Of a stretch of DNA of 64,000 bases, positions 1 through 64,000 are shown piece after piece. The notes beneath the pieces are model-generated. The model was not told the DNA's origin. It saw nothing but the letters and a program-made list of their open reading frames with translations, and ran no database searches. The stretch is taken from positions 558,001 through 622,000 of the forward strand of contig OZ237742.1 of the NCBI GenBank assembly GCA_965178125.1. Reading direction: 5' to 3'. Origin of the DNA: Bilabrum cf. latius (taxonomy: Eukaryota). Both the position numbers and the translations under genes were made by a program. Numbering within the stretch: position 1 is the stretch's first letter; each line of letters opens with the position of its first letter.

Positions 1-2651
1 AAAATGCCAGGGCATGTGACAACGAATCCGCCGCTTTGGAGGAAATAGGCAATCCCAAGCGACTCCCCGAGGGATACCAAGTCGAACGCGATTCGCACCG
101 GCTTGCACGCTTCCGGAAACATGCGGTTGTAGATCCTGCTGGCAGCGACGACACACCCGACAGCCACCGGGCGGCTCTCGTTGAACATTCGAGACGTGCC
201 GGGGGCGTCATCGACGATTGCCCCCGACGTGAAGGCAACCAAGTAGTCGCGTGGCAACGGATCTGTCAGCTCCAGCCCTTCTGCAGCTACCGGGCTAGTC
301 TGCTCGGAGCCGTTCCCAGCACCACCACGGCCAGCTGTGCTCGAATCTGGCTCGGCACTGCCTGCGCTCACAGCAGCTGCAGAAGACGAGGATGAGGAAG
401 TGGAAGTCACCGCGAGAGAGCGGCCATGGCCATGGCCTGCTGCTGGCGCACTCTTCGCCACCAGGGGCTGCAAGGCGTAAGGGAGGATGGAGAGGGCCCC
501 GATCTCGATGTTGCCACCCACAGGCTCCTCCGCACTGTCTCCTGCCCCGCGAGTTCGGGTCCGGGAGTCTGTGCTCCCGATACTGTCCTCGCTGAGACCC
601 AGGCCGGCGTGGTCGATTGCTAGGTGCTCGATGCCAGCCGTCAGATCTTGATCGGCGGAAACCAGGCCGCTGCCTCTAGACTGAGACGATCTCTCGCTGG
701 AAGGCTCAAGGGACAGACTGCCCATCGACTTCATTTTCCGCAGCACGCCGAGACGAACACGAACCACCACACGACTGCCGTCCCCGAGCCCGGTCGGCTG
801 GCCGTTCTCTCCGATCGAGCTTCTGGCCTGCAGAGCGCCAATGGCAGCACTCGCGGCTTTGCGCCTCGCATGACTGCTGCCACTCCCAACAGCAGCGTAG
901 GCCTGAAAGTCCTCACCTTCATCTTTGCGCCTGTAGGCAAGCACTTTGGCCTCCCAGGTGCTTGGAGGTGTGACCATCAAGATCTGCCTCCAAAGCGTTG
1001 GCCTGGGCGCTATCAGCCGTGCAATTTTCTTTTCAGACAGAGAGTGCCATGGTCCTTCTCTCGTGTCGCTTCCAGATGGGGCTGCGCCGGTTTCAGTCTG
1101 CTGCTCGTCCCCCCGGTCCTCTGCAGCATCGACGATAAGGCTACCAAGCATTCGGTCCATCGCGCCGCTGCCGGGCACGCAGTGCTGAAAGCCAGCGACG
1201 TGATTCCTCATTCTTGCACCGAGTGACTAGGCGTCAGGTGATTGCCACGCATTGCGATTCTGTGAAAGCTAAGCGCGGTTCCACCGCTCCGCCAGTGCGT
1301 GCTCTTCTGTTCCCCGGTGCAGGCCAAAGGCAGCCCGCAGGTCCTCAAGCAGCGATCCGATGCGGTGCAGCTGCAGCTGCTAGAAGGGCCACCAGCCGTC
1401 CTTTTCCCGCTGGAAAGAATCGATCGAGTCGTCCTGGCGTCTTGTCTCCAGGAGGCCGTGCAGCGTCGATGTCTTGACATGGTGCCCCCGACGAGCCCGC
1501 CCGGCACCACGCCGAACTGACCGCCTACCGTCACCGCCTTCGTCAACTGAGTCACTGTCGGAGTCACTGTGCTCGCTTGTATCGTCCTATTCATCATCAT
1601 CTTCATCCTCGTCCTCATCCTCGTCCTCGTCCTCATCAACCCCCCGCATGGCAGGCTGGCCACGAGATCCCCGCCCACTCCCCCGCCCTCGCCCTCGCTC
1701 TCTCTCTCGTCTGGTGGACCCAGTCGTCTCCTAGCCCCGGCGAGAGCCGCGGTGCCTTCGACGGTTGGACGCCGTGCGAGGTTTTGGGTGGGGCGAGCTC
1801 GATTCCGAATCGGTCGACGCGTCCTCACCACCATGCGATGCAGCTGCCGTCCCTGTGTGTCGCCTGCTGTTGGTCGCATGCAGTGGCATCCCCATCAGAT
1901 GCAGAGGGTCATTCTTGTCCCCCAAAGCGCCCACAATGCGGCGATCCGCATCCATGGCAGCATCCGCGGGTAGGCCGAGCGTGGTGCGCATCGATGCTGC
2001 GTCGGACGATGTGCGGGTGGTGATCGCGCCACTGCCAGGCTGAGGCTGGCTGCCCCAGCGAGCCGACTGACCTAGCACGATCGACTGTCGCTTAATGAGC
2101 AGCACGTGCTTGGACAGCATGGAAAATCTGCTATCATCAGACAGGCCCCCGAGAGCGTCCACGGCGGGCGCCTCACCGCCCTGCTTCGCCGCGCTGCCAT
2201 TGCTAGCAGCAGCACGCTCGTCATGCTTGCTGCTGCCGGTCTGGGCAGGCGCGGCGAGGCCATCATGTCGAACGTGCACCAGAGACAGGGGAGTAGATGT
2301 ATCTAAAAGTGATTTTGCGAGCATGTAGGGAGCCCATACGCGTTTCCCGCTTGACTCTTGAGTTGGACGCCACACGACCAATGTGGGAGGCAGATCTTGC
2401 GCTGGTGGTGGGCTCTCAGCGTCCGCAGGCTCTTGCAGCGTTGTCTAATCCTACATCTATTCATTTTGACCAGAACTATCGGCGTTTGCAACGCTAGCAT
2501 CTGCCCTGTTGGCTTCATCGACTGCTGTCGGCTGTGTAATTTCCCGACCACTCTGCTGCAAGGCGCGGTGGTTTTCGGAGGTATTCTCGCCGCTCTATTG
2601 TGAGCCAACCTCTAACACGTTTGGTGCCATTTCACCCTCTTGGGTAGACAT
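1..2651 (-). CDS. Hypothetical protein, 3'-truncated by the window edge, with low-complexity and acidic tracts
   Basis: One minus-strand frame (that of ORF 1731..2381) is open from ~2651 to position 1 if TAG is sense (TAGs at e.g. 1380, 1587, 1731, 2445, 2451, 2457, 2595). It has a DE-rich run at ~1580-1640. The start is uncertain; a cgcag acceptor near 2654 suggests a possible upstream exon. Confidence 0.65.
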
Positions 2652-3143
2652 TCCTGCGAAACAGAATGATTTGAAGCAGAATCCGAATCGCACGGTGCCA
2701 TGCACCGGTAGATCTGGCTACCTGGCGGTAACACATGCGACAAATCAAGTATGTAAGATAAACGTGCTTGGAATTGATTCACGCACACTTGGGTGCCACA
2801 CTTAATCAGAAACGTGCTGCAGAATGATGGACCCCCCCCGCAAATCTAATCTTCAAGCAACAGCAAAGGTTCGAATCTCACTGTTTATCGACAAACAGCG
2901 CCTAGAATTCAATCACAGTGATTGCCTCTGCGTGATGATTTGTCCGGTGGATAAAGGCTAGGCCAATTTGACGGTGCACGCGAGAGACCATGCACGATCG
3001 CATCAATGCGCGGCGCCGCCCCGGGCCAGACGGTGCGCTGCTGGTCGCAACAGACTTGATGCAACTTCTTGTTACTTCGATTGGCCTGCTGAGGTCTTCA
3101 CAAGGTTGTGCAATCTATCAGAGAAATATTTGCTGTCTCTTTG

Positions 3144-4713: not shown

Positions 4714-5393
4714 ATGGTATGTTTCTTTGCTGCTTGGTTCTCTGTGGGACATGAAGAGCTCGAATCTGCACTACAAGGGTCTATTTCGAATATTTCGCTT
4801 GGAATCGCAGGCATCCGCAGGAGGGTCTATAGGAGCGGCAGCTCAGCAGGCAATCGTAAGAAGGTTTTGTTGGTTCATACTTGCATCGCAGCACGTGCCG
4901 CGCTGCTACTGGTCTGTGCATTCCTGACGATGCAGTATTTACTGGTATTTGCTGTTCGCAGTAGCATGCTGGCGGGACAACTCAAGAAGAAGTCGCGGCC
5001 CAAGAAGCTAAACGAGCAGAGCAGGCAGAATCTCGACGAGTTATTCTGAAACAAGTCTTGACTGACGCTGCAAAGGCGCGAATCGCGAACATAGCGCTTG
5101 TAAAGCCAGCCAAAGCACGAGCTATTGAGGACAGGTTCATTGCCATGGCACAGCGAGGGCAAATTAAATCAAAGGTAACAGAGGAAGAGGTGAAGCGACT
5201 GCTGGAGACCCTATCGAAAGCGGATGAAACTACGAAAGTGACCGTGAGAATCGCGAAATCAAGCGGATTTGAACTGTGCTGTGCTGCCACCAAACGCTTA
5301 GGTCTTGCCTGCCACAATGTGTCAAATACGCAGATGAAGCGAAGAGTCATCGACGAAGAAGACGCTTTGGATGATGACGAGGACGACTTCTGA
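4714..5393 (+). CDS. PDCD5: Programmed cell death protein 5 (dsDNA-binding domain), 4 exons: 4714-4716, 4811-4855, 4962-5243, 5334-5393
   Basis: The core ILKQVLTDAAKARIANIALVKPAKARAIEDRFIAMAQRGQIKSKVTEEEVKRLLE and the acidic C-terminus are typical of PDCD5. GT-AG introns (donors gtatgt, gtaag, gtgag; acceptors cgcag) keep the frame. Stop is TGA. Confidence 0.9.
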
Positions 5394-6130: not shown

Positions 6131-9100
6131 ATGCCGCGGGGCCTACTATGCATAACTTTCCTGTCCATTCTCCACATTCAGGCCCAAAACATACGTAAGA
6201 CGTGATTGTCGACCCCTTCTTTGCATCTATACTTTGCGCATCAGCACAATAGTTAGCCCGTATGAAAAACCACGTCTGCACGGAGCTTTGTCGTTACTGA
6301 CGCAGTATTGACGCCAAACTATTTCATATTAGACCAAGACGATGAATATTCATCTCTAGGATACAGTGTATCTGCATCAGGGGGTCAGGTTGCCCATGGC
6401 AGGCGCGGCCTGGCTTCAGCGTACTTGCTGCAGAAGCCAGACGGCAAGGATCACCGAGATCTTGAGGCTGACCCTGAGCAGCTTGGCATTGCTAGCCCGG
6501 CTGGATTAGGACAGAAGCCTGGCGTGCTTGCATCAACGCGAGGCTCACTGGCCGCTTTTGGAGCAGACCGTGGTGTTGCCGTCGTGCAGGCCCGCGATGC
6601 GTCGTGCAGCAGCGAGGCGAGTTGTTGGCTTTCAAGGGGGCTGCTGAACAAAACCGACTTAGCTTGGAGCGTGCACCCTACCAGTGATGAGCTTAACAGC
6701 GTGGAGACCCGCGCTGTAGCGCTTGGCGATGGGATCCTAGCCATAGGACTTCTTGCAATCCACCCGGATTTCCAGTCGCAGCAGGCCGCAAGCAGCGGCT
6801 CCGACAAAGCAAAGGACGAAGATGTGTTTGTGTCTGTGTTCAAACTCATGCCAAGCATCCGATGTCCCGGGTCACCGGTCCACCCCTCCTCTGTTGACGC
6901 CAGCTTGGAGCGAACAGTCGCAGAAGCAGAACGATTCAGCGGTGCAGACAAGTGCTCTCTGCCGTTTCTAATGTCCATTGCGGACGCAGTGAAGGCAGTG
7001 GCTGACCCGATGGACCTAGATCTCACATCGGGCATGCCAGATGGCGTCAATGGCACTCTATCGGCCCAGGGCGCCGGAGCCGCCGCGGCGACGAGGCTCC
7101 GCAGCATGGCTTGGGCCAGGGTCTGGCACGGCACACGCATCGATGCATGGCCAGGTGCAGAACCCGTGCGGCGATCCGTGGAGGGCAGTGGATTCGGAGC
7201 CTCAATTGCTGTGAGGGAACACTTGGTCGCGATCGGCGCCCCTCTAGCCAACGAGGTCCACTTCCTCCGGGCTGCGCCTCACGGGGCCCTACTGCAGGAC
7301 GGCGACCCAGAGGCTGTCGTGCCCGAGCAGGAGCTTCCGTGGTACGATCCAGAGCAATCAAGCAGTGGGAACGCATCGGTTCCGTCGTCTGGGGATTCTA
7401 ATCAGCCGCACATCCCCAGGCATGTCGCTTGGAGGGGCCGGAGGTTCGGCGACGAGTGGACGCCAGCTGTGTCTCCCCTCAGGCTGACCTCTAGTACCGC
7501 ATTTGGCGGGGCTGATGGGACCATGGTCACAGGAGAGGAGAATTTTGGTGCTTCTGTGGCCCTGACCGAGCGCTATCTCGTGGTTGGCGCTCCCTTGCAT
7601 TGGGACGTGCGAACCCCTGCACCTGGCGGCAGCTGGGGTGTGGGCGGCATCAACTACGGCGCTACTTTCCTCTTTGACACGCCTTGGAGGTTCGCGAACC
7701 GCAGTAGCGACCTCCACGGGGTGCCTCTGTCCTCCTTTTTGAAGAGCCGCAACCACGTGCTGCAGGGCAAAGGCGCGTGGCTACCGGGTGGCGTATCCTC
7801 GGACAACAGCAAAGCCAGTGGCCCAGACGGCGACGAGCTCGAGCCCACGTACGTCCGCGGTCCCGGCCAGGGCTCGGCTGCTCAAGACCCTGTCCCGTTG
7901 CTGCTGGCAGGCAGCACGAGAGCACGGGAAGTGCTGGACCTACCCCTGGTTTTCATACGAAGACAGGCTGCTCCTGCCAGCGACAGCACCTGGGCCTAGG
8001 CCAATCTGACTGCACTGCCGGGGCTACCTACAGCTATACCTGGATTCATGAGCATCCCAGCAGGCTATGGCGCAAGTTGGGTGGACGCTGGAAAAACTGC
8101 AGACTCTCCACTGCCCGCAGTGTCCCTGGCAGGCGGCTCTTGGCGGGCGTGGAGCCCTCACACAGCTCTGCGGCCAGTGTGCCGAATGGCCGGTGCGTCT
8201 GTTGACGGACGCATGGGCACGGCGGTGGCAGCCGAGGACGATACGGACCCGGGGAGCCACTCGATGGGTAACACTGGCGTTGCTTGGGCCAGCCGTGTGC
8301 CCGAGCTGAGGTGGTCGGACGGGAACACCATGATTGCCATATCCGCTCCTCGCGTCAACCGCGGCATATTCGTGTCCGTGGATGACGCCACCGGAATCTG
8401 CACCATAAACCACCAGATCACTGGTTTCTCAATGGGTAGTGAACGTGATTTTGGGCTCTCCATGGCATCTGCGTCTGGCCTGACATACTTCGGGGCCCCC
8501 ACTGCACAGACCTCGCACGTGCGTCCGAACGGCAAGCCGGGCAGGCTGTACGTGATTGCTTACTGTCACCCAAACTTCCACATCCGGTGGCCGCCAGCAG
8601 TCAGTCACGTCCGTCAGTGCGACCCTTGTGCCTAGGGCAGACGGACTGGGGGTGGAATCCCAACCGGCACGGCCTCTTGCGCTCAGTGCTCAGTCGGCAC
8701 TCAAGACGGGACGAGGCCAGCAAGTGCAGCGTGGATGGGAGACGGAAGCGGATGCAGGTACAGCTGCGATCCAGGCCGGTTCGGCCCCCGCTGCGAAGAG
8801 TGCCCTGCGTACATGGACTCGGTCACCGACCTCCTCGCTGCGTCTGGCCTCCAGGAGCTGGCCCCAGTACTGCCGCCAAGGGCTAGCTGGGTCACCACCG
8901 CGGATGGAAAGTGCGGTTGGCAGTGCTGGCCCGAGTTTGAGCTCAATTTAAGCGCTTCTTCAGTCGCAGAGGCTTGCATTCGGCCTCCGCCCCCCGCTCC
9001 GGTTGATCGGTTGATTGCTATTTCTGCTGAGAGAGGTGGTAGTGTGAGGCTTGTGGTGGACATGCCAGAGTCTCCGCCCCGCGCATCCATCGTCGCATGG

Positions 9101-12100
9101 AAAGCTGAAGTAAGGGTGATCGGTGCGGCGGTTGGTTCAAGCGTGCCGCTGCCAGATGATGTGTTTCCTGGTGACGAGTTTGAGCTGCCAGGGTTCGCCC
9201 CGGACGGCGAGCCGTTCACAGGGGCGGATCAAGTCCAATATTTTACTGCTCTATCGATATCCACAGGTGGTGGGCCGCCAGTATCACCGCCCGAGAACCT
9301 GGTTGCTGTTGAGGTCCCAGGCTTGCGATCCATGGTGCAGTATAGGATCAAGCTGGCAGCTGGCAATGCGGGAGGCTATGCGGACTATGGCAGCGTGGAA
9401 TCACCGCTAGTGAACACAGAGGCGGCAGTTGCCCCTGGCCCGGCTGTCGGACTGGTGGCCAAACCGTTGTCCGGCGGGCTGTCCTCCATGTCGTTTGGGC
9501 TCGGCGAGCGGCCTGGGGGCGCACTAGTTGAACAGGTGAGAGTGTGTGTAGCTGCGGCATCGGGTGCATCCGACCCACCACTGAATGGCTCGGTGCTGTC
9601 ATGGCCTGGCGCTGAACTGGCAAGACCTGCTGGTCCTTGCGAGCGAGTCTTGATCTTTGGCAGCCGTTTGGCGCACGACTTTAACGGTCTGAGCGCCACC
9701 GAACCGCTCGCACCCGCGGTGCACCTATCGGATGAACCGATACAGTTCGAGTAGAAAACCACTGATCGGCTCGAAGTGGCTCTGCAGCTGCGTGCAACAG
9801 TGCTGCTCAGCGGGCTGGAGGCAGAGAAAGAGTATGTCGTCCGTACTATCCTCGTATCCAATGCAGGAGTGGGTACGGCATCGGAGTGGTCAGTTGCGTT
9901 CTAGTAGCCGCCAGTCACCGTTCCCACGGCAGTTCGAAATGTGTCTTGCTCGTCAGTACTGGGCGGCAGGATTCGCTTGAGCTGGAGTCCGCCGGTTGAT
10001 GACGGCGGCTTGCTGCAGCGATACTTAATTTCATATGGCGATGCCGCCGGTTGGGATGGGGATCAGTCGTCGCCGACGGTTTCGTCCTTCGGATTCGACC
10101 ACACAGTTCCCATTGATCCAGATGCCTTAGTGCATGAACTGTTCGGGGAGCATGTGGTGTCGAACCGCACGTATGCGATCCGTATCAGGGCGCAGTCAAG
10201 TGCCGGTATCGGCCCAACTGACAACGTTACGCTGGTGTGTACGCCTGGCGACATAACCCCGCCTTCAAATCCCGTGTCTGTTACCACCAGCAACCCAAGT
10301 GCCTCCACCGTGTTTGTGTCTTGGGGAAGCCCCCAGGACTTGGGCGGGGCTCCAAGAGAGGAAATGTCGTTCGTGGTGCTAGTGGGCCTGGCGCAAGAAG
10401 GAGACGGACCTGGGTTGCTGCTGCTGCCGCCTGAAGGCGATGTTGTTGGTGGCTGGGTAGCTGGGGAGACTGCCTCTCGATACATGCTAGTTAGTGGCCT
10501 CAACCACAGCACCTCTTACAGATTCGCAGTTGCAGCTGCAAACTCAGGGGGTTTGGGTCCATCATCTGAGATGTCTTTGCCTGTGTTTACTGGACCTGAA
10601 AGCGTGCCGGGGGCGCCTTCACGTCCCTTCGCTGGAAAGGTGACTGGAGGAGCCGTGTAGCTCGTGTGGGGGCTGCCCATTGAATCTGGCGGCTCGAGTC
10701 TTCTGGGTCAGGTGGTTGAAGCATCGAGTGATTCGATTCAGTGGACCACCGTCGGCCTTGTACATCCCAATGCCCAGCAAGTGGTCATTGGAAGACTAGA
10801 TGCCAGCACCCCCTACTTCTTTCGTGTCGCGGCGGTGGGCTCGTTGGGCACCGGGCCACCTTCCCAGCGCTCCCTTCGAGTTGATACGATGCCTGTGTCT
10901 CCACCCGGTCCTGCCAGGGTCCCAGATGTGGCCATCAGTTTCGAACGAGATTGTGCCGGACCTCACGTTGTTGTAATCGGTAGCGGAACTGTGCCATGCC
11001 CGCCGCGGAACCATAGCTCGCAGTCCCATGATACCGCCAACCCCTTGCGAGCTGTAGTGGTTGGTGGTGATGTCGATGCTGATGTGTTGCCGGCTTGGAT
11101 GCGAGTATCGCTTGCCTCTACGACCCCATCGGACGACACACCCTTGCCTGTACTAGCTTCAGGTACCCGCCCCGGTCCGTAGATTGCGCTTGAGATCATG
11201 GCACCTGTGGATGACGGCGGTGCGATGCCTGGGGGGGTCGCCGTGGTGGTTGCTGGTGCTCCTACTACTGTTCCCGTTGCTGGGCTCGACCCGATACAGT
11301 GCGAAGCACTGTCTCTTGCAGCGGTGAAAGTTGCTTCAATTGTGTCTGGTGAAAAGCAGGCTGCTCTTGCAAGGACGCTCTAGCCATACTTTGATGCCCA
11401 CAATGGGCAGTACTCCGCAGTTTTGATGGTGGCAGACAACGTAAGATCGTGCCCAGCGATGCTGCGGGACGCTTGCGCGGCGGAGCAGTCGTGGATCGGT
11501 GGCTCGATCATTCAGGGCAATCGGAGCGCAGGTGATGACCAGTTCGGGATGTCACCGATTCTGGGCTTGCGCATGGGAGGACTTTTGCACGGCTGGAAGT
11601 ACCGCCTGCGAGCTTCGGTTGCGTCGTCCGAAAATCAGCTTCGCACGCACCTAAGTGCTGCGGGCAATTTCTCCGAGTAGTCGCTGTCGTTCGAGGTAAC
11701 CCACGAGCTGGGCACGCAATTGCCCAGTCCTCCCGTCCCACGAGGTGTTGTGGCAAGATCGCTTGTGGGAGGTAGCATTACCATGCGCTGGCAGTGCGAC
11801 CCAGAAGCGGGGGGCGGGTCTTCCGTATCTGGATTCGTGCTGCTTGTTGCTCGATTTGATCACATGGTTGATAGCGGGGCACTGAACGATGCAGATCTGT
11901 CTGGTATGAGTGGTTCATCCGAGGAGCAGGTGAACAGCCCAAGCGTAACCATTGACAGCAGTCGTGTGAATTGGTGGGCCGCCGAACCCACGCTGCCAGG
12001 TGACTCCTCAACCGCGGACGATTTCCCGTCGTCGACTCGTCGAATGGAGCGCAGGCAAGGAGTCACAGCTGTGCGACTGTGGAAACGAGCAAACACTGGC

Positions 12101-47175: not shown

Positions 47176-47385
47176 GATCCACAGCTGTTTTTGCGGCGGA
47201 GGCGCGGGGTTCTAAGTGCGGATGGAGGCTTTGTTATTCGATTTTGTGGTGCTTGTTTGCCAACCAGTTCTTTCATTGCCATGACATGCATAATCTTGGC
47301 GAAGCGCCACGCAATTGCACGCGATTCGGGTCGTCCCAAGCGCGCGCATCGAGGCGCAATGCCCTCTATTGCACCCAGCCGGGAG

Positions 47386-50646: not shown

Positions 50647-53600
50647 TCACACGGCAGGACCAGAGTAAGCAAACACTGAGTTCCACCATTCGAGCGTTTG
50701 CCGCATGTACGCGATGAGCATCGCGACCACCCAGCCTAGCAGCGGCACAGACCGAGCGCCACCCTCGGCACGCAGCATCGCCGCCCTTGTAACCAGCCCG
50801 AATAGCGGAGACCGCAGCAAATACATCGCCCAGAGATTCTTCCGCCGCCGCGCAAGCTCGTCGAGCTCCGATGGCCGCAATGTGCCGCCATGCACCGCTT
50901 CAGGGATCCCGCTCCCACGCCCGTCCGCCCCCTCGGCCCCGGCCAGTGCAGCCACCCTCACCTGGTTTGAAAGCCGCATCACGACGCGCAGCAGCAAGGA
51001 TATTCTTCCAGGGGAAGCGCCACTTGATCGAGGCACCCGCACGCCGCCAGCCGCCCCCCCGTCCTCCTCACCAAGCCCGCCGCCAGGAGCGCCGCCCCCC
51101 ACGACGAGCCCTGCGAACCGCCGCGCCGCAGATACCATCGCCCCAACCGACGGAACCTGCTGCACCAGAAGTCCTACTGGGTCAATCGCGAGCGCGGTCG
51201 CCGGCAGCGCCAGCACCTCGTGACCTGCAGCGGCCTCCTAGGCGGAATACGGGCTAGCAAAACGACCTGCAGCACCAAGGCTGGTGGCCGTCCTGCCCAC
51301 TGGTACCGTCGGCTGCGCAGTGTGACGAGCACCCACGAGGACGCCCAGCTGCCTAAGCCCTGCCTTTGCAGCGTCTCCTGCCGCGCGCAGAAGTCCTCTG
51401 ACAGGCCTGCCCCTGGCAACGTCGACGCTCTTGCGGGTGACATACCTAGCCGCAACGTCCATCGCAAGGAGAGTTAGCAACGGAGACCAGGCGCGCCTGC
51501 CCGTCCGCTTCACCATAATTGCATAAACTAGCGGCCTGGCGATCCAAAGAATCTCGCCGAGCAATCGAACGGGCGCCGCGGATGCTTCCGTGTCTCCCGG
51601 GCCCAGGCCATCCCTCCACCCCGCTGATGGGCCTGCTGCTTCTGGTGCGTCGCTTCGGGTCCCACTACTACCGCCCTGAGCGCGCCCCCGCTGCTGCTGC
51701 TGCTGCTGCTGCTGATCACCTAGAGATGCCGGCCTCGAGGCGCCGTTGGAAGTAGAGGCAGCCGCAGAGGCAGAGGAGCTGCCGTCCCATCCACCCAACG
51801 GAGGCAGGTCCGAGCTCGCCTCTGACATAAAGGACGACTCCAGCTGCTGGTCAGGGGACTGCTCAGCCTCAGGTCCGGAAGGCGAGGCCCCGTCCCCTGC
51901 AGCAAGCCCGTCGCTCCCATCAGAATCGTCGCTTTCCCATCCTCCCGTCGACAGCGTGGTGACCGAGCCCCGGTCTGCCCGCGCTACAGACTCTGCTGCA
52001 GCTGCAGCGTCTCCGTAGATCCTCTCCGCATCGCTTGGCCCAGAGAGAGCGATAGCATCAGCAACAGATGCGCCACCTAGCTCTCGAGCCGCGGCTTCTG
52101 CCCTTCTGGCTGCCGAAGAAGCCACGAACGGGATCGTAGTTCCAGTCCTGCTGCCCCTCCAGTACCTGACGCGAGGCGTGCTGGGATCCACGCGCTGCGA
52201 CACGTCCTAACTGGAAGGTGCTGCAAGGCCAGACGATCGACTGCTACCCCCGCCGCTGACAGATGACTCCGCAGGATCGCTCGAAGGTGCTTCCTCCACC
52301 GCACCTCGGCTCCCATCACCTGCCTCTCCCGCCCACGCGAACGCGAGCGGGATACCGGCATCTCGAGCAGCCTGGATTGCTTCCTCCGCGGCAGACCGAG
52401 CCCAGCCCGTGTCTGCCTCCCCACCAGCAACCAGAAATCGCCGCGCCAAAGTAGGCCGCTGGCATATTTCAGCCGAGCTGCCGCCCTGCCCAGCCGCAGT
52501 GAGGCCTCCACTGGCAGCAGCAGAGGGTGCAACTCGGGCCCCCGCTGAATCGGCCAAGGTAGTGTCCCTCCCGTCCCTTCGCTCGCCGAGCAGCAGCAGC
52601 CTGGTGGCAGATAGGACGTCTTCTGCCGCCAGCCCGAGCTCCTTCCCGAACCGACTCCACGGCCCCCTTCGCGGCGTAGCGCGGCGGGGCCTAGCGCCAG
52701 CACCCTCATGCAATGCACCTGCATCACCGACTGCGTGCACCCTCCTGATGAGAAGCGACAGCCTCATGAAGAATCGCACGAGTTCCAGCGCGACCACCGC
52801 GTTGTCCCTTGTGTCTGACCCACCCAAGAAGCTGCTCCCGACCTCGGCTGCTGCCCCGACGCCACCGAGGGCAGACAGCATCCATCGGAGCTGGACGTCC
52901 CTGGACACCCCGCTGCTAACCTCCCCATTGCGTCCAGCACCAGTAGCTCTCGCAGACCCAGCCCGGCTTGCAGCTTCAGGCGAAGCGCCCAACGACTCAG
53001 AGGCAGGCAAGGGGGGGCCGGACGATCCAAGCACGCCCGAGCGACGGGCACCGCGCCGGGCGTGGCGCAAGCGCGCGGCAGCGCGCCTTGCAGACTCAGC
53101 TGCAGAGAGTTTAGCTTGTTCTCCTGATGCAGCGGATGAATTCTCGGCGGGCTCGTTGGCTTGGGACTGGGCCGGGTCCGATCCGTCCAAGCTCGGTGGC
53201 TGCGATAGCCGTGGACCACACGCAGCGGCGTCTTCGAATTTCCTCGCGGCGACTTCAGCCTCAGCTACCGCGTGCGATCCAGCGGATGATGCTGTTCCAA
53301 CCACCGCAGAGTCATGGAGCTGCTCGAGCAGCCTAGACGCAGCAAACAGAGTCTCGGATAGTGCTTCCGATTCGCCACCCCACGTCGACGGCAGCACGGA
53401 CGGCAAGGCGTACGCGGCGTACTTCATCCACTGCTCCAGCTATCGTGCTGTTTCGAAGTTCGCTGTGGCCCACCTGCCGTACGAGTCCAAAAACTCTTTC
53501 GCAGGGGAGCCAGGGGCGAATGCGATTCCACGAAGCAAGGCTTCAATCCAGCTCTACGGTCGAGACGCAACAGGCTGGCGCCTCGGTAAGGAATTGGGTA

Positions 53601-53778
53601 CGCCTGCCCCACTCGAGCTGTCGCTTGTTTCCTCCTACTTTGGTGCGGTAGACTGCAGTCCAACTCCAACACTGCTCCGGCGCGACTACGCGTACTGCAT
53701 GGCATCATTCGCGGATAGCAGGACTGTCCGGCGCCTTTGCGACCGCGCTCGAGACGTGGAAGAGCGATTGCTACTCAT
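50647..53778 (-). CDS. PEX16: Peroxisomal membrane biogenesis protein PEX16, with long low-complexity insertions
   Basis: N-terminal YGRWATANFETAR*LEQWMKYAAYALP..SEALSETLFAASRLLEQLHD and C-terminal GEILWIARPLVY..AWSPLL..MD, ELARRR..MYLLRSPLF match PEX16 blocks. Three ORF fragments lie in one frame joined by TAG. Stop is TGA; start is ATG 53778 or 53700. Confidence 0.85.
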
Positions 53779-53845
53779 TTCAACTTCAACGATACGTAGA
53801 CTGACGATAACTTCCCGAGGCCAAGCGGCGAGATTTCGTATTTTA

Positions 53846-53893
53846 GTAGCGCCGCGCGCCTACAATAGCGTGAGCGGAACCTAATTTGGCCGC
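53846..53893 (+). repeat. Left terminal inverted repeat
   Basis: gtagcgccgcgcgcctacaatagcgtgagcggaacctaatttggccgc. Confidence 0.85.
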
Positions 53894-54496
53894 CCCGGAC
53901 GGGAATCTGAAACTTTGCGGCACTCGACCTCCGTCCACGATGGGGGCATGGTGATTCTGTTCCTGCAAAAGTGAGTTTCAATGGTATGAAAATCGGATCG
54001 TCCTGCCTGCGCCAGCTGAGGCTCGAAGCGTAGGCCGTTTGCCTGGTGTTCGTGATTTTCGCCGTTTCCTGTCGTCGGCTTGCCGCCCGCTTTTCTCGGG
54101 CTACAGGCAATTTTAGAAAAACTATATCTCCCATATTTTGAATTTTGCCGTGATAAATCGTCTAAGGGCTATCGTTCTCTGTCTCACGCAGATCTCGCGT
54201 AGCCCCCCCGGATTGAATGGAGATGGCAACCGAGCGCGGGCGCACATCTGCCAGCGCCTCTAGCGCAGCCAACTCTGGGTCCACGCTGAAAATTCCTCCG
54301 TTGATTGATGTAAGATATTGATTTTATCCTTTCTAGACCGCATCTGGGGTGATTTTCCGCTCGGAAGCCATCGCCACTACAGCTAGGTCGTAGTTTTTGG
54401 GGTTCGGGGCCGTGCGCGTTTGCACTGCGCTCGGCGTGTCTTGGTGGGGCGATATTTCTGTCGGGTCTATCACTTAGTTCTTGGAGTTTTAAAGAG

Positions 54497-56527
54497 ATGG
54501 GCCGTGTTTCATTGATTTTGAAGATGACCTATTTTTGCAATCGTCGATGCAAGTCGGAGCCTTTTCATGGGCTCGAACTGCGCGATTTCCCATTTTTCTC
54601 ACTTTTGTGGCGATATGTGCAGCCCATTTTTCCACCATCGTGTACGACGCAGAAGTATTATTCTTTAGAGGAGAGCTTGGGGTATGAGAGCGCAGGCACA
54701 CCCGGGACGGGGGCCTCCGCGCTCGGCGTGCTGGCGGCCTGCCTGGTTGCCCTTGGCATGTACGAGTACAACCTCACTGGAACTCGGGATAGCTGCCCCA
54801 CACTTAAAGGACTCGAGGCATGGCTCTAAGGCCGGGCAGGCGACAGAGATGGGGGCATCTGCTTCTTCCGCGCCTGCTTTGTCTGCCGGGTTGCTTCGAC
54901 TGCGGCCGCACAGGCTCCGGGTAAAGGTGCCTCCGGCGGGGCGGACGACGGCTACGCCCCGCCCCCCCCTGACGTGCTTGCGGTGTGCAGGCCCTGAGCG
55001 GGGTGGCGGGGCTGGGCATGAGGGCAGGGCGCGCAAGGCGCCGTCCGTGTCCGTGCTGGTGCTTACTTGGGCTGGGCCTGAGTGTCGCTGCTGGCGGCCG
55101 CGGTGCGGATGGCGACGCCCCTGGTTAAGTTTGTCTCGCAGGAAGACGTCATCTGCGCCACCTGCGACTTGTGCCGACTGCTGTGGTCGCCGAGCCTGAT
55201 GGCGCGTGTCCGCTGCGGCAAGGCTGACAACGAGCGGATGGCGCACAGGGACCCCGAGGACGTGCTGCTTGGGGCCCTCGGGGATGCCGTGCGGCAGGAG
55301 CATGCCGCGCACCGGATGGTTGCCTCGGACTACCTTTCTGTCGCCGAGAGGGGGCGCGACGGAACGGACGGGGACGAGGAGGGGGGCGGGGGTGGTGGCG
55401 AGGAGGACGAGGAGGGGGGCGGGGGTGGTGGCGAGTAGGAGGGGGAGGCGGACGGGGGCGGTGGCGAGGAGGAGGTGGAGGGAGGGGCGGGGTTGGGCGA
55501 GGATGAAGGGGCTGTAGAGGAGGAGGAAGAGGCGGACGAGGACGCGCGCCGCATGGCAGGCCTCCGGCGGGATCTGGCGGGCACCGTGGTGGTGCGCCTG
55601 CGGATACAGGCCTGTTGCCTCGAGGGCATGGTGCGGCTGGTATTCCTGCTGCCACTGCTGCTGGCTGAATGTGACGACGGGCTGCATACCGGAGGGCTTG
55701 CGTTGCAACCGGAGGAGGTGCGGGCCTCGTGGCGGGTACGGGTCGACACCACTGTCACCAAGTGGCTGCTGATCGCCCGCACCACCATCGGAACAGGGAG
55801 CGGGGGCAGAGCAGGTGCGGCTGCAGTGGCACCGCAGCAGCAGCAGTCGCAATCAGATCTGGTCGCAATCGGATGCCGCCCCTGCGAGTGGCTCGAACTC
55901 TGCCTCGGACGGCACCAGCAAGGGGCGGACGAGGGGCAGCCGGTGGGGGGGGAAGGGGCGCACGGGCAACAGGGGGGGGGCATTGGCAACAAGGGGAGGG
56001 TCAGGGACGGAAGTCGAAGGCGGCGGGAGGCGCTTGCCGTAGAGGGCGAGGCAGGGGGTGGGTCCAGCAGCGAGGACGAGTACGAGGAAGGCTTGGCGGA
56101 CGCCTCGAAGCGGTCCCGTGACCCCCAGCACCGGTCCTCTCGCAGATCGAGCCGAAGGAGGCTTCCCACGCAAAAGGGAATGGACTACCAAGAGACGTTT
56201 GCGAGAGCCATGGCGGAGGGCCGGGGGTGGCTCCGCGACGGGAGCGACGAGGACGAGGGGGGCGCGGCGGCCGCCGTGGCGGGCGACGGGGATGCAAAGG
56301 GCGCGGCTGCCGCGATGATGGACGCAGAATACGGCGGCGATGTCGTCCCCGATCCGGTGGGCGAGGAAATTCCCGATTCCGAGGCGCAGATCGACGCCGA
56401 GGGGGAAGACGCGGAGGACGCGCCTCTGGCGGCCAGGGGGGCGGCGGCTGTGTTGGCCAGCAAGCAGCTCTAGGCGTTCGACGCGATCGGAGGGAAGAAG
56501 CCCCCCTTGCTGCCAGACCCAGAGTAA
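54497..56527 (+). pseudogene. Degraded ORF of unknown function inside the TIR element
   Basis: ORFs 54497, 55082 and 55475 share a frame but are broken by TAA (54827) and several TGAs. Cys-pair motifs (CATCDLC, CRPC) and E/G-rich tracts are present. No transposase motif was recognised. Confidence 0.5.
55373..55438 (+). repeat. 33-bp tandem duplication encoding DEEGGGGGGEE
   Basis: gacgaggaggggggcgggggtggtggcgag(g/t)ag, two copies. Confidence 0.8.
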
Positions 56528-57095
56528 GACATCTGAGCGCCCTACAGGCTCTGGGGGCCGCGGGAGCGACGGCCTGGCGAGGCCTGCCAGGGCAGCAGCG
56601 GGGTGGCGGGACCCGTTCGGGTCGAAAGTCGGCACTTCTCCGCCCGGTCGGGGGTGCCCCTTCGGTTCGTGTGATAGATAAGCGATAGAACAACAGGCTC
56701 CGCTCACGCGCATGCGGATGCAGCCGCTGGGACGGCCTGCAGACGGCCGCGAGCGCGTTTGGACGGGCCACCTAGAGAGGCTCCTTGCGCCCGAACCAGC
56801 GCCACCCAGCCTCTCACACGAGCACAATCGAATGAACATACCATAAAGAGCAACATATCAAAAATCTGTCTTTAAGGGTGTTTAAGGAAAAAATTGACGG
56901 GCCCGCACGTACCGGCTGCAGTCGGCGAGACAGTCGCGCCGCGCCGCCGGCAAATTTTCTGCCGCCGATCAAATCCCGGCGCAATCGACGCATACAGTCA
57001 CAAAGAATATAGTAGGAGCATTTTTTCTCGCATAATTTCTCCCCGCCCGCTCACAGGCGCCCAGACGTGATCCGGGCGCCCCGCCGGCCGCGCGC

Positions 57096-57143
57096 GCGGC
57101 CAAATTAGGTTCCGCTCACACTAATGTAGGCGCGCGGCGCTAC
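57096..57143 (-). repeat. Right terminal inverted repeat
   Basis: gcggccaaattaggttccgctcacactaatgtaggcgcgcggcgctac is the reverse complement of 53846-53893 with 2 mismatches. Confidence 0.85.
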
Positions 57144-57231: not shown

Positions 57232-60063
57232 ATGAAACGGTTTATACCACACTTTTTCCTTTGGGCATTGAATTAGTACGCAAATGCCTCCTGTATTGCC
57301 TAGTGGGATGTACAAGTACCACCTTGCGTTGCTCCTGATGATATCTCGGCGGCTCGATGCGGATTTCAGTATTCAGGGATTGAGCTCGGCCAAAACCTGT
57401 CATTGTCTGTGAAATTTGTCACAAATAGTAGCTTTGATCCAGAACGCGTGATGTGGTCATCATCAGGTGGGCCTGCAGGGACCGGAATGACCATGCTCGA
57501 TGCAAAGGTCGTGGGCCCTGCATCCGTGTCTGCCACAGCTGTGGCATCGAGAGCAGGCACATACGTAGTCTCTGTAGCGCACCCCAACTGTAGCATATCA
57601 TCCCTACCTGTCGTAGCATGGCAAGGCTATAAGGTGCAAGGCGTCGAACCACACAACAAGGCGTCCCTCCCAAGCAATGAAGAGCTATTCTTTCCGTTCG
57701 ACGTGCCGTGGAACGGCTCGAATTTGAACTCTTCGCTGTCAGCCGCATTTTGGGTAGAAGCCGCGGGCCCTACCGGCTCGCTGGGCCCGGTCCGTGTTTC
57801 GGATTCGGGCCACTTCGAAGCTAGCGGCACGGGCAGTCGCGTGCGTCTCTGGGGTGCCAACCTCGTGGCCGGCGCTGCCATCCCCCCCAAGGCCTTTGCA
57901 GATGGAATAGCCCGGAAGGTGTCATCCTCTGGATTCAACGCAGTTCGCTTCACGATGATAGACTAGAACTGGGCGGGCACGAGTGCACTCGATGCTACGA
58001 TTGTAAGCAGCGACAGGGTGCACCTGAATGCAACCATGCTGGACCGCCTGCATTTTGTCATGGCAAGCTTGAAGCAACGAGGGGTGTATTGGCACCTGCC
58101 TCTACACTTTGGGCGCACGTACTGCAACTTTACTGCAGCCAGGACCGGTTCGGCATTCCTATCTGCCGATAGGGACCCGTACTCCAACGCCGCCAACCCT
58201 TGCCCTGAGATCACAACGTTTGACAAGGCCGTCGCAATGGTCATCCCCGAGGCGCTTGAGTCACAAAAGCGGTTTGCGATGGCTCTTCTCAACTCATCAA
58301 ATCCATACACAGGCCGCACAATCGTGTCGGATCCGGCGCTTGCAGTCGTTGAGCTCTCGAACGAAGACAGCCTTACCATGTACTGGAGCTGGGGGGCCAT
58401 CGATAAAGCCTCTTTGCAATACCCTGACCTGCAGCGCCACCTTGAGCTCAAGTGGACGGCTTGGTAGCTCCAACCGGGACCCCATGGCCAGATTATTGGC
58501 GGTTGCAAGCCGGCTGACCACCCCGAGGACCCATGGGGATCCGTGCTTGCCAGGTCGCAGTTCAACAGTGCCAGCAAGCTGTAGCGGGAATGCTGGGTGG
58601 CGTTCCTCGCTGACATGGAGGTGGCATGGGCTGATGCCATGGGTGCTCTACTCAGAAATGAGCTAGGCTACAATGGCCCCATCGTGGCATCACAGGCCCA
58701 GAACCTTCCTGCTAGCGTCTCGGCTCTCGCTGCAACTGTCGATACCGTTGGTGTGCATGGATACTGGGGCGTCGGCAGGTCGCCACCGCCAGGAGACAAG
58801 ACAAGGTGGGTGACGAACATTCCTCAGGCCGGATATCATTCAGGGGGGGTCTTTGGTGCAATGGCGACGTATCGCGTCCATGGGATGCCGCTGATTGCCT
58901 CCGAGACCAACACGGCCCACCCGAGCACGTACGGGGCCGAGCATGCCCTTGAGTTGGCTGCTATGATGCGGGCACAGGACTGGGACGGAGCCTACATCTA
59001 CGCGCTGTCTATAGCGTTCAAGGAAGAGATATAGAACTATCCAGCGGCGGGAATGGATCCCCCCATGGTCATCTAGCCGGAGCAAGACCTCGGCGATGCC
59101 ACGAGGACAACCCAACTCGTGGCTGCCAGCCGATTCGCGCTGGATCCGAGGCAACCATCTCTACCGCGTGGCAAAATACCTGTGCAAAATGAGAATGTGA
59201 GAGCAATGGGCGTGAATGAGACGGTGGTTGCCGCATTGATTCGTCGGATAGTGGCAAGGAACCTGGCAGACGGAGCCAGGTACCGAGGGACGATGGTGTC
59301 GGGCGCAGACTCTGGAGCAACGAATGCTAGCCGGGCATGGACTGAAATGCAAAGCTGGCCAATACTTGAATCTACTCATGGTAGATGCCACGTTGGCAGC
59401 AATTGCACGAGGCCAGGTGACTACGGCGGTCGGCTGGTACAGATCGAGCCGTACGAGTGGACGACCTCCAGCACGCAGCAAGCCTTGTTTGCGGCGAGAG
59501 GGCCAGCGTCTGCCATAGTGGCGGGCACCCTGACAGGGTACTTGAACGAATCTGGGCTGCCTTTCATCTAGCTGGCCCCGGGGCTATATGTCCGGCCAGG
59601 GCTGTCTTCGGGGCGAGCAGGGGACCTCCTCGAAGGGGGTCCTGCTGGTACTGGCAGTGGCGGCACAGACGGATCTCAGGGTTTTCTCATTGTCTCAGCT
59701 GCATGCATGGATGGAGATTCAGGGTGGTACGTTTCGCTTGCAAATTGCTCCCAGATTCTCGTCGCGGCTACCGGGGGTGGATGGCAGAATACCGGCATGC
59801 AGTTTGCTGTGTCGGACAGGGGCGGGGTGGTCGGCCCGGACAACGACCACTGGGCACAACCTCCAGCGCTTTTCGAAGTTGCAAACGTGACATTGTGTGG
59901 GTTTGCAAGCCCTGCCAGTGGTGAGCCAGAATGGACTGCGCTGCCTCTGGATGGGAGTGGAAAACCAATGGCGCACGGCCCAGGGTAGAAATCCACCGAG
60001 TGCTTGGACCTGGCTGGGTCGTCGGAGCGGACGCTGTGGTGGTCTGTGCAACGCTCTACTTAA
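57232..60063 (+). CDS. Secreted clan GH-A (GH5-like) glycoside hydrolase, bacterial-type
   Basis: ATG 57232 gives a signal-peptide-like MKRFIPHFFLWALN*YANA. Motifs: RVRLWGANL, GFNAVRF, LDRLHFVMASLKQRGVY, NPYTG..DPALAVVELSNE (acid/base), PLIASETN (nucleophile), QDWDG. Five ORF fragments lie in one frame joined by TAG, and the gene ends at TAA 60061-60063. Confidence 0.8.
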
Positions 60064-60122
60064 ATCGTTTGCGTGCGCTGGTCATAAATCGACCGCAATC
60101 TGGGTTGGATAGACTCTATCGC

Positions 60123-63100
60123 ATGCGTCCACTGCACGCACCGGTTGCGACCAGCGCTGCACGGTTGCGACCGCTCCAGCGTCAAACGAATAGATTCAGT
60201 TTTGACCGACATCTGGAATATCTAGTTCACTAGCCACCCATTTCCATGAAAAAAGTTGAACCAGACCCTTCACGACTTGTGATATCGGCTGAGGCATTTC
60301 AGCTGGCGCCACCAGCTCCCTCAACCCTAGCTGCCGTCCTACGTGCTTCGAATGAGTTTGAGAAGGCATCTGGGGCTGCAATGCAGGTCTTGGAGCAGTA
60401 GTTCATGATCAAAGGGTGCAGATCAACTTTGAATCCTGCCGAGTGGCCACGCATACGTGATGAAGTTGTGAGAGCTTGTGCTGATAATTCATCCAAGTCG
60501 CAGTCAGTTCGATACGGCGGCATCAGTGGAGTTTTGAACAACGGCTTTAGCAAATCAGTACTTGATGCACGAGATTCGTTGCGGGTGGAAGCTGCCTAGG
60601 CGCTCTGCGAACGTGACGGTACTGCAGACGTTGGCAAGCGGTCGCAGCAGACTTCAAGTGCAGCTTCCTTCCGGCATGAGGATCAGTTTCAAATGGTTCC
60701 AGACGAGCTTGATGCCGCTAACATGTGGTTCAAGCATCTATCGACTCTGTATCGAACGGCTACTAGACCAGATGAAACCGTGAAGGGACCGTCTGGACCT
60801 GCAGCAACGACCAGTGCGTATGCTACGGGTGCAGCGGCTCGGACCGGACTTTCAACCAATGCTGCATCCGATCACGACAGAACCGAGTCCGAGGCAGCTC
60901 CGCTTACCGCAGCTGCTGGTTCGAGCAATTCTGTAGTCCGAGAGCAACCGCGTGCCGGCTCGAAGCGCGCCTCGGTCAACATTTTGAAAGCCGCCAGGGC
61001 CCTGGTCGAATCCGAGGAACGGCGCCGGCAGTCTCCGGCCGAGCAGGCAGCGCGTGAGGCTAGTAGCCTTCCAAAGGTGCGGTTGCCCAGGGTGCTCGCT
61101 TGCAGTGAGGTTGGCATGAAAACATTCACGCTGGAGGCTCCAGGTGACGTGAGGAGGCACATGGACGCAAACCAGGCAAGGCTACCCGATACCAATGAAA
61201 GAAGGAAAAGCGCAGTGCTGCATGGACCCTTGATCGATGTTGTTTCTGCGAAGGATGGCTCAGGACGTGGCACGGGTGGCGAATCGCTTGCCGCTGCTGA
61301 ATCGCGACAGGCGCACCGGCGTGCTAGATCGCGTGCTTTCGACCGTCCCAAAGACATTGATCACTTGCTTCCATCAGACTGGGACATGGTTACCAACGCG
61401 GTCGCTCATGCGGGATCCTCCCGATTTCAAAGGGTTAGGCTTGGGGTGGTGCCGCAGAAACTGAAGGCGTTGCTGCAGGCAGGCCGCATGAGATTCAGGC
61501 TGAGAGAACCAATTGTGTTCTGCAAGGACCCTAGCACGCAGGTGATTCACAAGATTGCAGATGATGCGTAGCTTGACAAGGCAAAGAGGGCAGCGGCTGC
61601 GTTTTTTATATCCTTGGGTCACGTGCACCGCAAGCTCAATGGTTGCCTGGAGGTGCTCAGACAGGTCCAGCCGCAGCGGCTCGTGGCCTCTCAGCTGAGA
61701 TCTTCGCAACTGTCGCTCAGCGGGCACGACAATCGGGAAGAAAAGGCGATGGATCGCGAGGAAGAGATCAAAAGGGATTTTGTTGCGAGGCGGGCGGCGC
61801 TACGGGAAGTGCACGCCATGGTCTGGCTGCCACCCATGAGGCGGAGACTTATCAATGAGGTGCTTCCGGTGCTTCTAGCTAATGCCGCGGCTTTTTGCAC
61901 GCACAGTAGCGAAGAAATTGGGTTGCCAAGGTCCTGGCCTCGATTGAACCATGACCCTCTCCATGATCCACGCATGCAAGGCAAGCTGTCGAGCGCTGGC
62001 TCGCATGATCTCGTAGCACGATTTTCGATGGCAGTCCGATGCTTCCGCGTGATTGCTGCACTGCTAGTTGCTACTGCTGGGATGCATGGCAAGGAATCGG
62101 CTTCTGATGCGAGCTCTAGATCAGCCTCAGATCCGCATTCGTAGCGAAAGTCAGAGTCAATGGCTGGCCTGCAACGCACAGAGCAGCAGGCCTGCGTTGT
62201 AGAGCAGTGGACCCTGCCTACAATTTGCGTTGCGCTTGGCGTTGCGGAAAAGATGCTAGCAGTCGGGACAAAGATGCAGTCGCAGCGTTACAGAGAGGTG
62301 TATGAGCAGGGTGGAGACACAGCAATGGATGAGGTTGGCACTGCGGAGAGCCAGCCGGGGCAGCGCGCTCGTGGGCAGATGAACCCTGCCGACGACAGCA
62401 CTCCTTCGCACGCCCCAAAACAAACAGCTTCTCCAGTCGCCCATTCCAACTCCAGTCTCGATTGCATGCATGATCGTCATGTTTGCGAGGCGATGGAATT
62501 CGTTGCACTCCTTGGTAGGGCCCTAACATGCTCTCCTGTTGGCTTCCGTGTTCTGCTTCGCTCCGGCGATGGAGACCCGCACAGCCCCAAAGCCCTGGCT
62601 AGAACCGCGCTGGCGCTTGTACTACGCAGCTGGAGCTGGAGCCATGATGCATTTGCTCGGGTTTCTGCAGAGCTGCCTTTGCTTCCCGCTCACCCGGACA
62701 AGCCGCAGCACTGGGCAGCAGTGCCTCCCGCCAGCAGACCCTCGGCCTCGAGCTGGCAGCTAGACCCCGGCAGCGACAGCGATGATGAAGCCAGCGCTTC
62801 CATTCCGTTCTAGGGCTATGAAGGGATTAAGAGTTGGGCAGCTCCTGGAAGGCGGGGTCGCTCGGGCCGGAGAGGCTCGATTCTGGAGAAGAGGCACGTG
62901 CGACGCCAACTATTCGCACTGGAGTCCTCGAGATGCACTCGACAGCTGGTTGCCGAGACACTAGGTGCTGCGATGGCTCATGATTAGTTGCAGACCAACA
63001 GAATTTTGTCTTCGGTAGGAGGCATGGGTTGGCGGAATCTAGGTCCGATCTCTGCGGCTGTGCCTGACAGGACGGCGTCAGAGTCTGCCGCCTTTGCCGC

Positions 63101-64000
63101 CATTCTTTGTTCGCTCGGTCTTGCGGCTTCAGGTGGCATTCAAAGTACATCTGCGTCTATCACTGGTGGCACGAGCATCCGAGATAAGCTATTTGCATGG
63201 TAGCCTGCCATGCAGGCTGCAGCCTATCCCTAGTCGGTTCCTTCTCTTGATGAAGCCCTGCACTAGCACGAGCTGTTCAATCCCGCGTTTTACTTCGAGC
63301 ACGACAAGGACATGGCAGCGGCAATAGCTGTAGCAGAAAAGCGAAAAGAGCAATCAGAGCTTGGTAGTGTTGATGTTCACGTGAAGCAGGCCTAGACTCT
63401 CTCGGCTGAGCTGCTGAGAACCCTGTCTGCTGAGAGGGTTTGGTTGCGTTCTGGCGTGTCTGCAGTCAGTCTGTCGCAGGATGCGCCTGGCTTTGGGGTA
63501 TCTGTTGCAGCGGCAGCCTCTGACGGATCGTTGCGGACCCAAAGCATGATCGGGGATCGCACAAGGTCCATCCTGGAGAAACTGTTGGAGCTGCAGAGAG
63601 GAGACCTCATTCAGAAATCAATGATGGGTACCTCAAACCGCGCAGACAAAGTCAGCGTTGCGGACAGGAGCACAATGGGTAGCGCATCGGCGTTATCCGC
63701 AGGAAGTTTCGATGCGCATGCTCACTTTGAACATGATGGGAGCTTGCCTCTGCTGTGCCGTGGCATTTTGGGAACGGACGTATCAGTCAACTCGATGTTT
63801 TCGGCCGCTCTAGCTGCGACTGGTGCTTGGTCAGAGATTCGAAGCGCGACTCACACCATGTCTCGACTCGCCGCAATTAAAAGCTTTCACCAGAATGCTA
63901 GGCTTGCGTCCCTAGTCGCCAATTTTTGGGGCCGGTCAGTTGATTTTAGGACCCCACTAGCAACGAGCCAGACCGCCAGACCCCGAGCTGGCTTGCGCTG
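60123..64000 (+). CDS. Large hypothetical protein, 3'-truncated by the window edge
   Basis: ORFs 60405, 60693, 61614, 62160 and 62988 share a frame and each ends in TAG. The frame stays open (no TAA/TGA) to the window end. No family was recognised. Confidence 0.7.

Follow-up and report, generated by a model that had tools for sequence, protein, structure and literature searches.

The 64,000-nucleotide (nt) stretch of Bilabrum cf. latius analysed here (contig OZ237742.1 of assembly GCA_965178125.1, positions 558,001 to 622,000, read on the forward strand and hereafter called the window) belongs to a nuclear eukaryotic genome in which UAG is a sense codon and UAA and UGA are stops, a code that is lineage-wide. 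UAA and UAG nearly always change meaning together. The best explanation is probably that UAG was lost as a terminator and is translated as a polar amino acid, most likely glutamate (Glu) and otherwise glutamine (Gln), with UGA (mostly) and UAA ending the genes. The window (~59% G+C over 64 kb) is nuclear DNA of a GC-rich, intron-poor eukaryote, because RNA-derived contigs lack its GT..AG introns and carry a poly(A) tail, and because its genes include those for Pex16, a PDCD5-type protein, a RING protein and a kinase.

UAG as a sense codon in the window and its lineage

The original prediction, made from the letters of the window alone, had proposed UAG as a sense codon with UAA and UGA kept as stops, and codon counts bear this out. 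In ten long open reading frames (ORFs) trimmed to plausible starts (17,148 codons), TAG occurs 135 times in frame (7.9 per 1000 codons) and 123-154 times in the five other frames. For TAA and TGA, the in-frame count is 0, and the other frames contain 45-96 and 145-449, respectively. Thus TAG is not avoided in frame, while TAA and TGA are fully avoided. Similarly, the longest stop-to-stop ORF of the whole window measures 729 amino acids under the standard code, 750 with TAA as sense and 829 with TGA as sense; with TAG as sense, the longest ORFs reach 6280, 3927, 1358, 1179, 1076 and 1035 codons, and frames of 6279 codons (6266-25105, the giant protein) and 3926 codons (33500-45280, the giant kinase) are open under TAG-as-sense alone. 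That giant genes are split by TAG had also been predicted; the phenomenon stands, but the fragment counts were too low, the two frames containing 55 and 35 TAGs instead of about 25 and 15.

All 11 gene ends named in that prediction are as it had given them: nine are TGA (4682, 5393, 25105, 28715, 30043 on the minus strand, 45280, 47175, and 47386 and 50647, both on the minus strand), two are TAA (29905, 60063) and none is TAG. Beyond the TAGs, Pfam domains and the C-terminal motif of a 5'-nucleotidase carry on in frame. This motif, expected past the TAG at 30157, has the form xP..GR[IVL] in 24 of 47 homologs and lies in frame in the window copy. The APE motif of the giant kinase had likewise been expected past several TAGs; Pfam Pkinase (PF00069) matches the protein in two stretches, and the part with APE is located downstream of eight TAGs. 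TAG density per 1000 codons is uneven, from 1.9 in a transporter-like gene and 3.1 in the 5'-nucleotidase to 8-10 in the giant and unknown genes, and by inspection no TAG lies within the ~540 residues that take in the conserved C-terminal portion of the giant protein, which suggests that UAG is located mainly at tolerant sites.

The TAGs are present in independent DNA and in spliced RNA. Part of 28700-38699 is contained in 12 sequencing runs from seven studies, and alignment of contigs of four runs from four studies to 28000-47999 listed no base differences and no insertions or deletions. These are assembled contigs, which show presence and not expression level. A DNA contig (X5, 8995 nt) runs through 29540-38534, retaining the introns and showing 0 differences from the window. 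In a second contig (from X6, 11,949 nt), 33130-33417 is joined to 33622-45282 with a GT..AG intron removed and again 0 differences; as it spans the whole giant kinase frame, every TAG of this frame is kept in spliced RNA. Further spliced joints remove GT..AG introns at 29300-29410, 45887-45973 and 46123-46220 and, on the minus strand, an intron at 31974-32239 (CT..AC as read on the plus strand), and a poly(A) loose end follows 47281, 3' of the TGA of a ZIP gene. X6 and a further run, X7, carry a guessed RNA label, no run being recorded as RNA; X6 is taken as RNA-derived because its contigs lack the GT..AG introns and a poly(A) end is present. Sequencing or assembly error and mRNA editing of the TAGs are thereby excluded, TAG being retained unedited in spliced, polyadenylated contigs identical to the window (0 differences).

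The code extends to relatives of the window organism. An exhaustive HMMER search, with the 1200-residue section of the giant protein richest in TAG as query (21 TAG sites, translated with table 15), gave 1566 matches at E <= 1e-3; among the best 150 of these 1566, most are generic FN3 proteins and eight are short fragments from close relatives. Four fragments (P0102, P0103, P0105, P0174) make up relative R1, with 93% identity over 971 aligned residues, and four (P0112, P0137, P0178, P0218) make up relative R2, with 58% identity over 729. All eight begin at the first Met following a stop, and five end exactly at a window TAG (P0105 at query site 144, P0103 at 407, P0112 at 258, P0218 at 123, and P0102 at residue 6101 of P0006). 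The remaining three end at non-TAG sites of the window, two of them opposite CAG and AAG, the third being poorly aligned; a relative of the 5'-nucleotidase (P0055, 72% identity) ends opposite a window GAG. CAG, AAG and GAG are each one step from TAG. Fragments that are cut at TAG and restarted at the next Met form the pattern expected if a gene caller using the standard code had cut proteins in which TAG is sense. Judged from these fragments, at least two related organisms (93% and 58% identical) share UAG as a sense codon: the lineage shares the code because the relatives' protein fragments break at window TAG sites.

Among nine fragments of the relatives looked up in protein clusters, each of the four close-relative fragments shares its cluster with one further sequence, nearly identical and with matching residues, which adds no independent evidence. 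None of the window's own first-ATG fragments (n = 10) was found in the protein cluster collection, and the relatives' DNA was absent from two metagenome-contig scans. Sequences exist for at least three members of the lineage (the window organism and its ~93% and ~58% identical relatives), which is present in cultures and metagenomes from several studies. Mis-annotated fragments in public protein collections are P0102-P0105, P0112, P0137, P0174, P0178, P0218 and P0055.

The amino acid read at UAG

The original prediction had named no residue for UAG. By comparison with the relatives' proteins, UAG codes for Glu or Gln; Glu is the probable reading, Gln a possible one of considerably lower probability, and any other residue is highly improbable. 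Opposite the window TAGs that it does not share, R1 has four Glu and one Gln, and R2 (n = 12) has four Gln, two Arg, two Gly and one each of Glu, Ser, Ala and Val. Likelihoods were computed from the empirical probability of the relative's residue given the window's residue, estimated on the same alignments. Relative to Glu (log-likelihood 0), Gln scored -7.1, Lys -16.2, Asp -26.8 and Ser -29.3, and Leu fell outside the top ten, below -38. Taken singly, the two relatives disagree: Glu is ahead by 11.7 nats in R1, Gln by 4.6 nats in R2. R1 was given more weight than R2 because multiple substitutions are rare at 93% identity. Indeed, over the 971 positions compared between R1 and the window, ordinary replacements between Glu and Gln number 0 in both directions, and the other 62 differences are mainly transition-type replacements (A/T, H/R, V/I). 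Where R1 has Glu, the window codons are GAG (37), GAA (13) and TAG (4); where R1 has Gln, they are CAG (23), CAA (11) and TAG (1). A 33-nt tandem repeat at 55372-55470, with TAG in one copy and GAG in its sister copies, adds slightly for Glu.

On this reading, UAG would no longer be a terminator but would stand for one of the standard polar amino acids, glutamate being the likeliest and glutamine the second choice. Decoding would fall to a tRNA whose CUA anticodon is a single base away from that of tRNA-Glu(CUC) or tRNA-Gln(CUG) and should read UAG but not UAA, and eRF1 would have lost its recognition of UAG. We infer this mechanism by analogy, a tRNA and eRF1 change having been proposed for other UAG-only codes (PMC5304391; PMC11687900).

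Several observations weigh against glutamate or against the mechanism. The distant relative R2 has Gln at 4 of its 12 TAG sites and Glu at 1, and a pair of TAGs lies within a CAG run (M Q X Q X Q Q), which adds slightly for Gln. Among the neighbours within three positions of TAG, Gln makes up 5.06%, compared with 3.69% around Glu codons and 5.59% around Gln codons, by a method that failed its own validation. If TAG sites were unusually fast-evolving, the margin for Glu would shrink to a few-fold (a rough estimate, not a computed one). In a family related to glycoside hydrolase family 5 (GH5), two TAG sites fall in columns rich in Leu (27/39) and Phe (32/39), fitting neither Glu nor Gln. The 11 gene ends are too small a sample to exclude rare or context-dependent termination at UAG. 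Finally, a tRNA scan of the 64-kb window found no tRNA gene, and the eRF1 gene is not among the genes of the window. The R2 pattern can be explained under Glu, since at tolerant sites TAG would arise most easily by mutation of CAG.

Other approaches to the residue were tried and left unused after failing validation: a naive-Bayes model of neighbour context (top-1 right for 9 of 57 known codons), neighbour hydrophobicity (TAG -0.27 +- 0.10, between Gln at -0.36 and Leu at -0.15) and a pooled likelihood over the three neighbours on either side (12/54 top-1, with the true residue of CAG ranked 15th). A self-alignment of the FN3 repeats of the giant protein was uninformative, its columns being mixed at four TAG sites.

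The alternative that survives best is the same UAG-only code with UAG read as glutamine, as in Iotanema, Hartmannula, Trochilia and Protocruzia (formally NCBI table 15). Besides the R2 residues with their 4.6 nats and the TAG pair in the CAG run, it is favoured by one relative's internal stop lying opposite a window CAG, and by Gln being the commonest outcome of UAG or UAR (UAA and UAG) reassignment in eukaryotes (PMC11687900). However, if UAG were Gln, the synonymous transition between TAG and CAG should dominate the comparison with R1, where four TAGs are paired with Glu and one with Gln in the absence of any ordinary Glu-Gln replacement over the 971 positions. Moreover, TAG would then occupy just 1 of 35 conserved Gln sites, compared with a window-wide share of 135/(561+135) = 19%, and R1 disfavours Gln by 11.7 nats. 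We therefore consider glutamine less likely than glutamate, which remains the preferred residue.

That UAG encodes some other amino acid, i.e. Leu (as in exLh and phyllopharyngean ciliates from TARA), Ser (as in Scotinosphaera), or Tyr, Lys or Trp, is very improbable. The distant GH5-like alignment, with its TAG sites in a Leu column (27/39) and a Phe/Tyr column (32 Phe and 5 Tyr of 39), and a TAG within the hydrophobic part of a signal-peptide-like start would fit such a residue. Leu, Tyr, Trp and Lys are all absent from the 17 relative residues opposite TAG, however, and Ser is found once; the log-likelihoods of Lys, Ser and Leu given above lie far below that of Glu, and TAG is absent from the window at the 67 sites where R1 has Leu. 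Leu or Tyr, first suggested by the distant GH5-like homologs (conserved columns at 2 of 9 TAG sites), is thus contradicted by the close relatives.

There is similarly little chance of a UAR code of the ciliate or aphelid type, or of a code in which the context decides whether UAG is read as sense or as stop. In their favour, Amoeboaphelidium, an algal parasitoid, has been reported with TAG and TAA as Gln (PMC6299283), some of the runs holding a small share of the stretch are labelled algae or protist metagenome, and one gene terminates in ...TAG TGA. The absence of in-frame internal TAA, which had been predicted, holds for all 17,148 codons (0), where ~48-68 would be expected by our estimate if TAA were used like GAA and CAA relative to GAG and CAG; TAA moreover terminates two genes. 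The code is hence not of the ciliate UAR type. A dual code is opposed by the lack of TAG at any of the 11 gene ends.

Last, the TAGs could be artefacts or untranslated, i.e. errors, edited out of mRNA, parts of pseudogenes or of unrecognised introns. Some TAGs counted in stop-to-stop frames do fall in introns or untranslated regions (that at ~29375 in intron 29300-29410), and some in P0004 and P0005 are upstream of start codons, but the chance that this holds in general is negligible: the DNA contig and the spliced RNA contigs match the window exactly across 35 TAGs, pseudogenes would be expected to gather TAA, TGA and frameshifts, of which there are 0 in 6279 + 3926 codons, and reading frames and several identical TAG sites are conserved in relatives. 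For the bulk of the TAG sites, this possibility is refuted by the contig comparison.

Genes of the window

At the left edge lies P0008, of unknown function (3-2651, minus strand), in a TAG-sense ORF at 3-2744 with nine in-frame TAGs, which extends beyond the edge of the window and has no Pfam match. On the plus strand follow P0009 (3144-4682), which has a signal-peptide-like start, three in-frame TAGs, a TGA stop and no Pfam match, and the last exons of a PDCD5-type gene for a double-stranded DNA-binding protein (4860-5393; PF01984, E 5.5e-24; stop TGA), whose sole TAG in frame falls at a likely splice acceptor.

The giant frame of 6279 codons (6266-25105, plus strand) combines FG-GAP, FN3 and PSI domains with a transmembrane segment and RING-H2, and has 55 in-frame TAGs, 0 TAA and 0 TGA before its TGA stop. 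Because its first 194 codons contain no ATG, an upstream 5' exon is likely absent from the current model. With about eight FN3 repeats, its architecture is that of an integrin- or plexin-like ectodomain together with a cytoplasmic RING-H2, i.e. a fusion with a ubiquitin-ligase finger.

The plus strand continues with P0003, of unknown family (26703-28715; four in-frame TAGs; stop TGA), and a 3'-5' exonuclease-domain gene (28769-29905; PF01612; stop TAA), whose GT..AG intron at 29300-29410 is spliced out in RNA contigs X6 and X7. The 5'-nucleotidase gene (PF02872, PF00149) lies on the minus strand at 30043-32343, with an intron at 31974-32239 and a TGA stop. Its TAG at 30157-30159 is located upstream of the conserved C-terminal motif, and a second TAG is the last codon before TGA. 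A single RNA contig runs across the convergent exonuclease (plus) and 5'-nucleotidase (minus) genes (28750-32343), whose stop codons are separated by 138 nt; the two 3' untranslated regions probably extend into each other. In X6, position 31973 is joined to 32240 across the minus-strand intron with 12 additional letters in between, which may represent a micro-exon or an alternative splice site.

The giant membrane protein with an AGC-type kinase domain (33130-45280, plus strand) has an intron at 33418-33621, 35 in-frame TAGs in its 33500-45280 frame and a TGA stop. In this 3926-codon protein, a ~580-residue insert with eight TAGs interrupts the kinase domain. A search for full-length relatives of the giant kinase gave one irrelevant match. 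The idea of class-III cyclase-like segments in P0007 was dropped, as a search of PDB sequences gave it no support.

Downstream, a ZIP metal transporter gene (45443-47281, plus strand; PF02535) has introns at 45887-45973 and 46123-46220, its TGA stop at 47175 and poly(A) after 47281. Two minus-strand genes follow: an amino-acid-transporter-like gene (47386-50484; stop TGA), with an Aa_trans match under the Pfam cut-off and two in-frame TAGs in a poorly conserved stretch, and the gene for the peroxisomal membrane protein Pex16 (50647-53802; PF08610, E 1.7e-27; six in-frame TAGs; stop TGA). On the plus strand lies a glycoside-hydrolase-like gene with GH5/cellulase-type relatives (57235-60063; nine in-frame TAGs; stop TAA). 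Its 39 homologs are 23-33% identical, some with PF00150. The named relatives are exclusively bacterial (Phycisphaerae, Lentisphaeria, Opitutaceae; 23-33% identity), and on these matches the gene may have been acquired from bacteria. P0010, of unknown function (60243-63998, plus strand), has ten in-frame TAGs and extends beyond the right edge of the window.

Between Pex16 and the GH5-like gene lies a 48-nt inverted repeat with arms at 53846-53893 and 57096-57143, which are 96% complementary and are its only two copies in the window. The arms are located ~50-140 nt upstream of the divergent gene starts of Pex16 (minus) and the GH5-like gene (plus), and could be a promoter or 5' untranslated element shared by both genes; alternatively, they could mark the two ends of a 3.2-kb GC-rich insert as its terminal repeats. 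The region at 54200-56830 is GC-rich (62-63%) with long open frames on both strands, among them a putative plus-strand ORF (55082-56527) of acidic low complexity, without Pfam match and harbouring the 33-nt tandem repeat at 55372-55470.

Comparison with known codes and meaning for the lineage

The original prediction had ranked UAG-only reassignment as rare, naming Iotanema spirale, one rhizarian and a few ciliates. Its rarity stands, but the list was incomplete, as Scotinosphaera (Ser), Protocruzia and several phyllopharyngean ciliates have to be added (PMC11687900).

In Iotanema spirale (Fornicata) and the ciliates Hartmannula sinica, Trochilia petrani and Protocruzia tuzeti, UAG encodes Gln, and UAA and UGA are stops (PMC5304391; PMC11687900). 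These systems resemble ours in that the change affects UAG alone and UAA still terminates, and the tables would be identical if UAG were Gln here. The window genome differs from this set in being GC-rich, with spliceosomal introns, and not ciliate-like. Its main stop is UGA (9 of 11 gene ends), whereas phyllopharyngeans are described as preferring UAA (PMC11687900), and the comparison with the close relative favours Glu over Gln.

UAG is read as Leu in the rhizarian exLh (Sainouroidea) and in three phyllopharyngean ciliates from TARA (PMC5304391; PMC11687900). Uneven use of UAG is common to exLh, with little UAG in its ribosomal-protein genes, and the window, where two conserved genes have 1.9-3.1 per 1000 codons and the giant genes 8-10. 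By contrast, Leu is excluded here (0 of 17 residues; log-likelihood below -38).

If the favoured reading is right, the residue would be that of the oligohymenophorean ciliate PL0344 (UAG as Glu, UAA as Lys) and of peritrich ciliates and Blastocrithidia (UAR as Glu; PMC10553269; PMC12153298; PMC11687900). In all of these UAA is reassigned as well, whereas in the window it is absent in frame and terminates genes. The green alga Scotinosphaera, with UAG as Ser and UAA as stop (cited in PMC11687900), is likewise a non-ciliate with a UAG-only change, but the window data speak against Ser, which lies 29.3 nats below Glu and is found once among the 17 relative residues. In Amoeboaphelidium protococcarum, TAG and TAA both appear to encode Gln (PMC6299283; PMC5304391). 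It too is a non-ciliate with in-frame TAG, and its algal association might be a shared ecology, a weak likeness; TAA is not sense in the window, and the code as described for this organism sets it apart.

UAG-only reassignment as such is thus already known; for the version with Glu and two remaining stops (UAA and UGA), we found no earlier description. Our literature search, whose coverage left out many subscription papers, returned no report of UAG as Glu with UAA and UGA stops and no matching GC-rich non-ciliate lineage. Tentatively, UAG may have become Glu, with UAA and UGA kept as stops, independently of the known cases, in a GC-rich eukaryote lineage outside the ciliates. The earlier guess that this lineage is bicosoecid- or Cafeteria-like gained no support: among named homologs, those closest to the 5'-nucleotidase come from fungi, Ulva and a diatom (30-36% identity). 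An Rfam scan of the window returned no family and no rRNA, and the window contains no marker gene.

The few lineages that split UAA from UAG, i.e. exLh, Iotanema, Scotinosphaera and some ciliates, are test cases for discrimination between the two codons by eRF1 and suppressor tRNAs. The lineage described here adds a non-ciliate case whose public data already include its genomic DNA and spliced RNA together with two or more relatives, so that the tRNA, eRF1 and the order of events would be directly testable. Because gene callers using the standard code chop the proteins of this lineage, its genes are currently mis-annotated in public collections. Should UAG prove to be Glu, with UAA and UGA still stops, this would be a new variant, its table being one for which we found no description.

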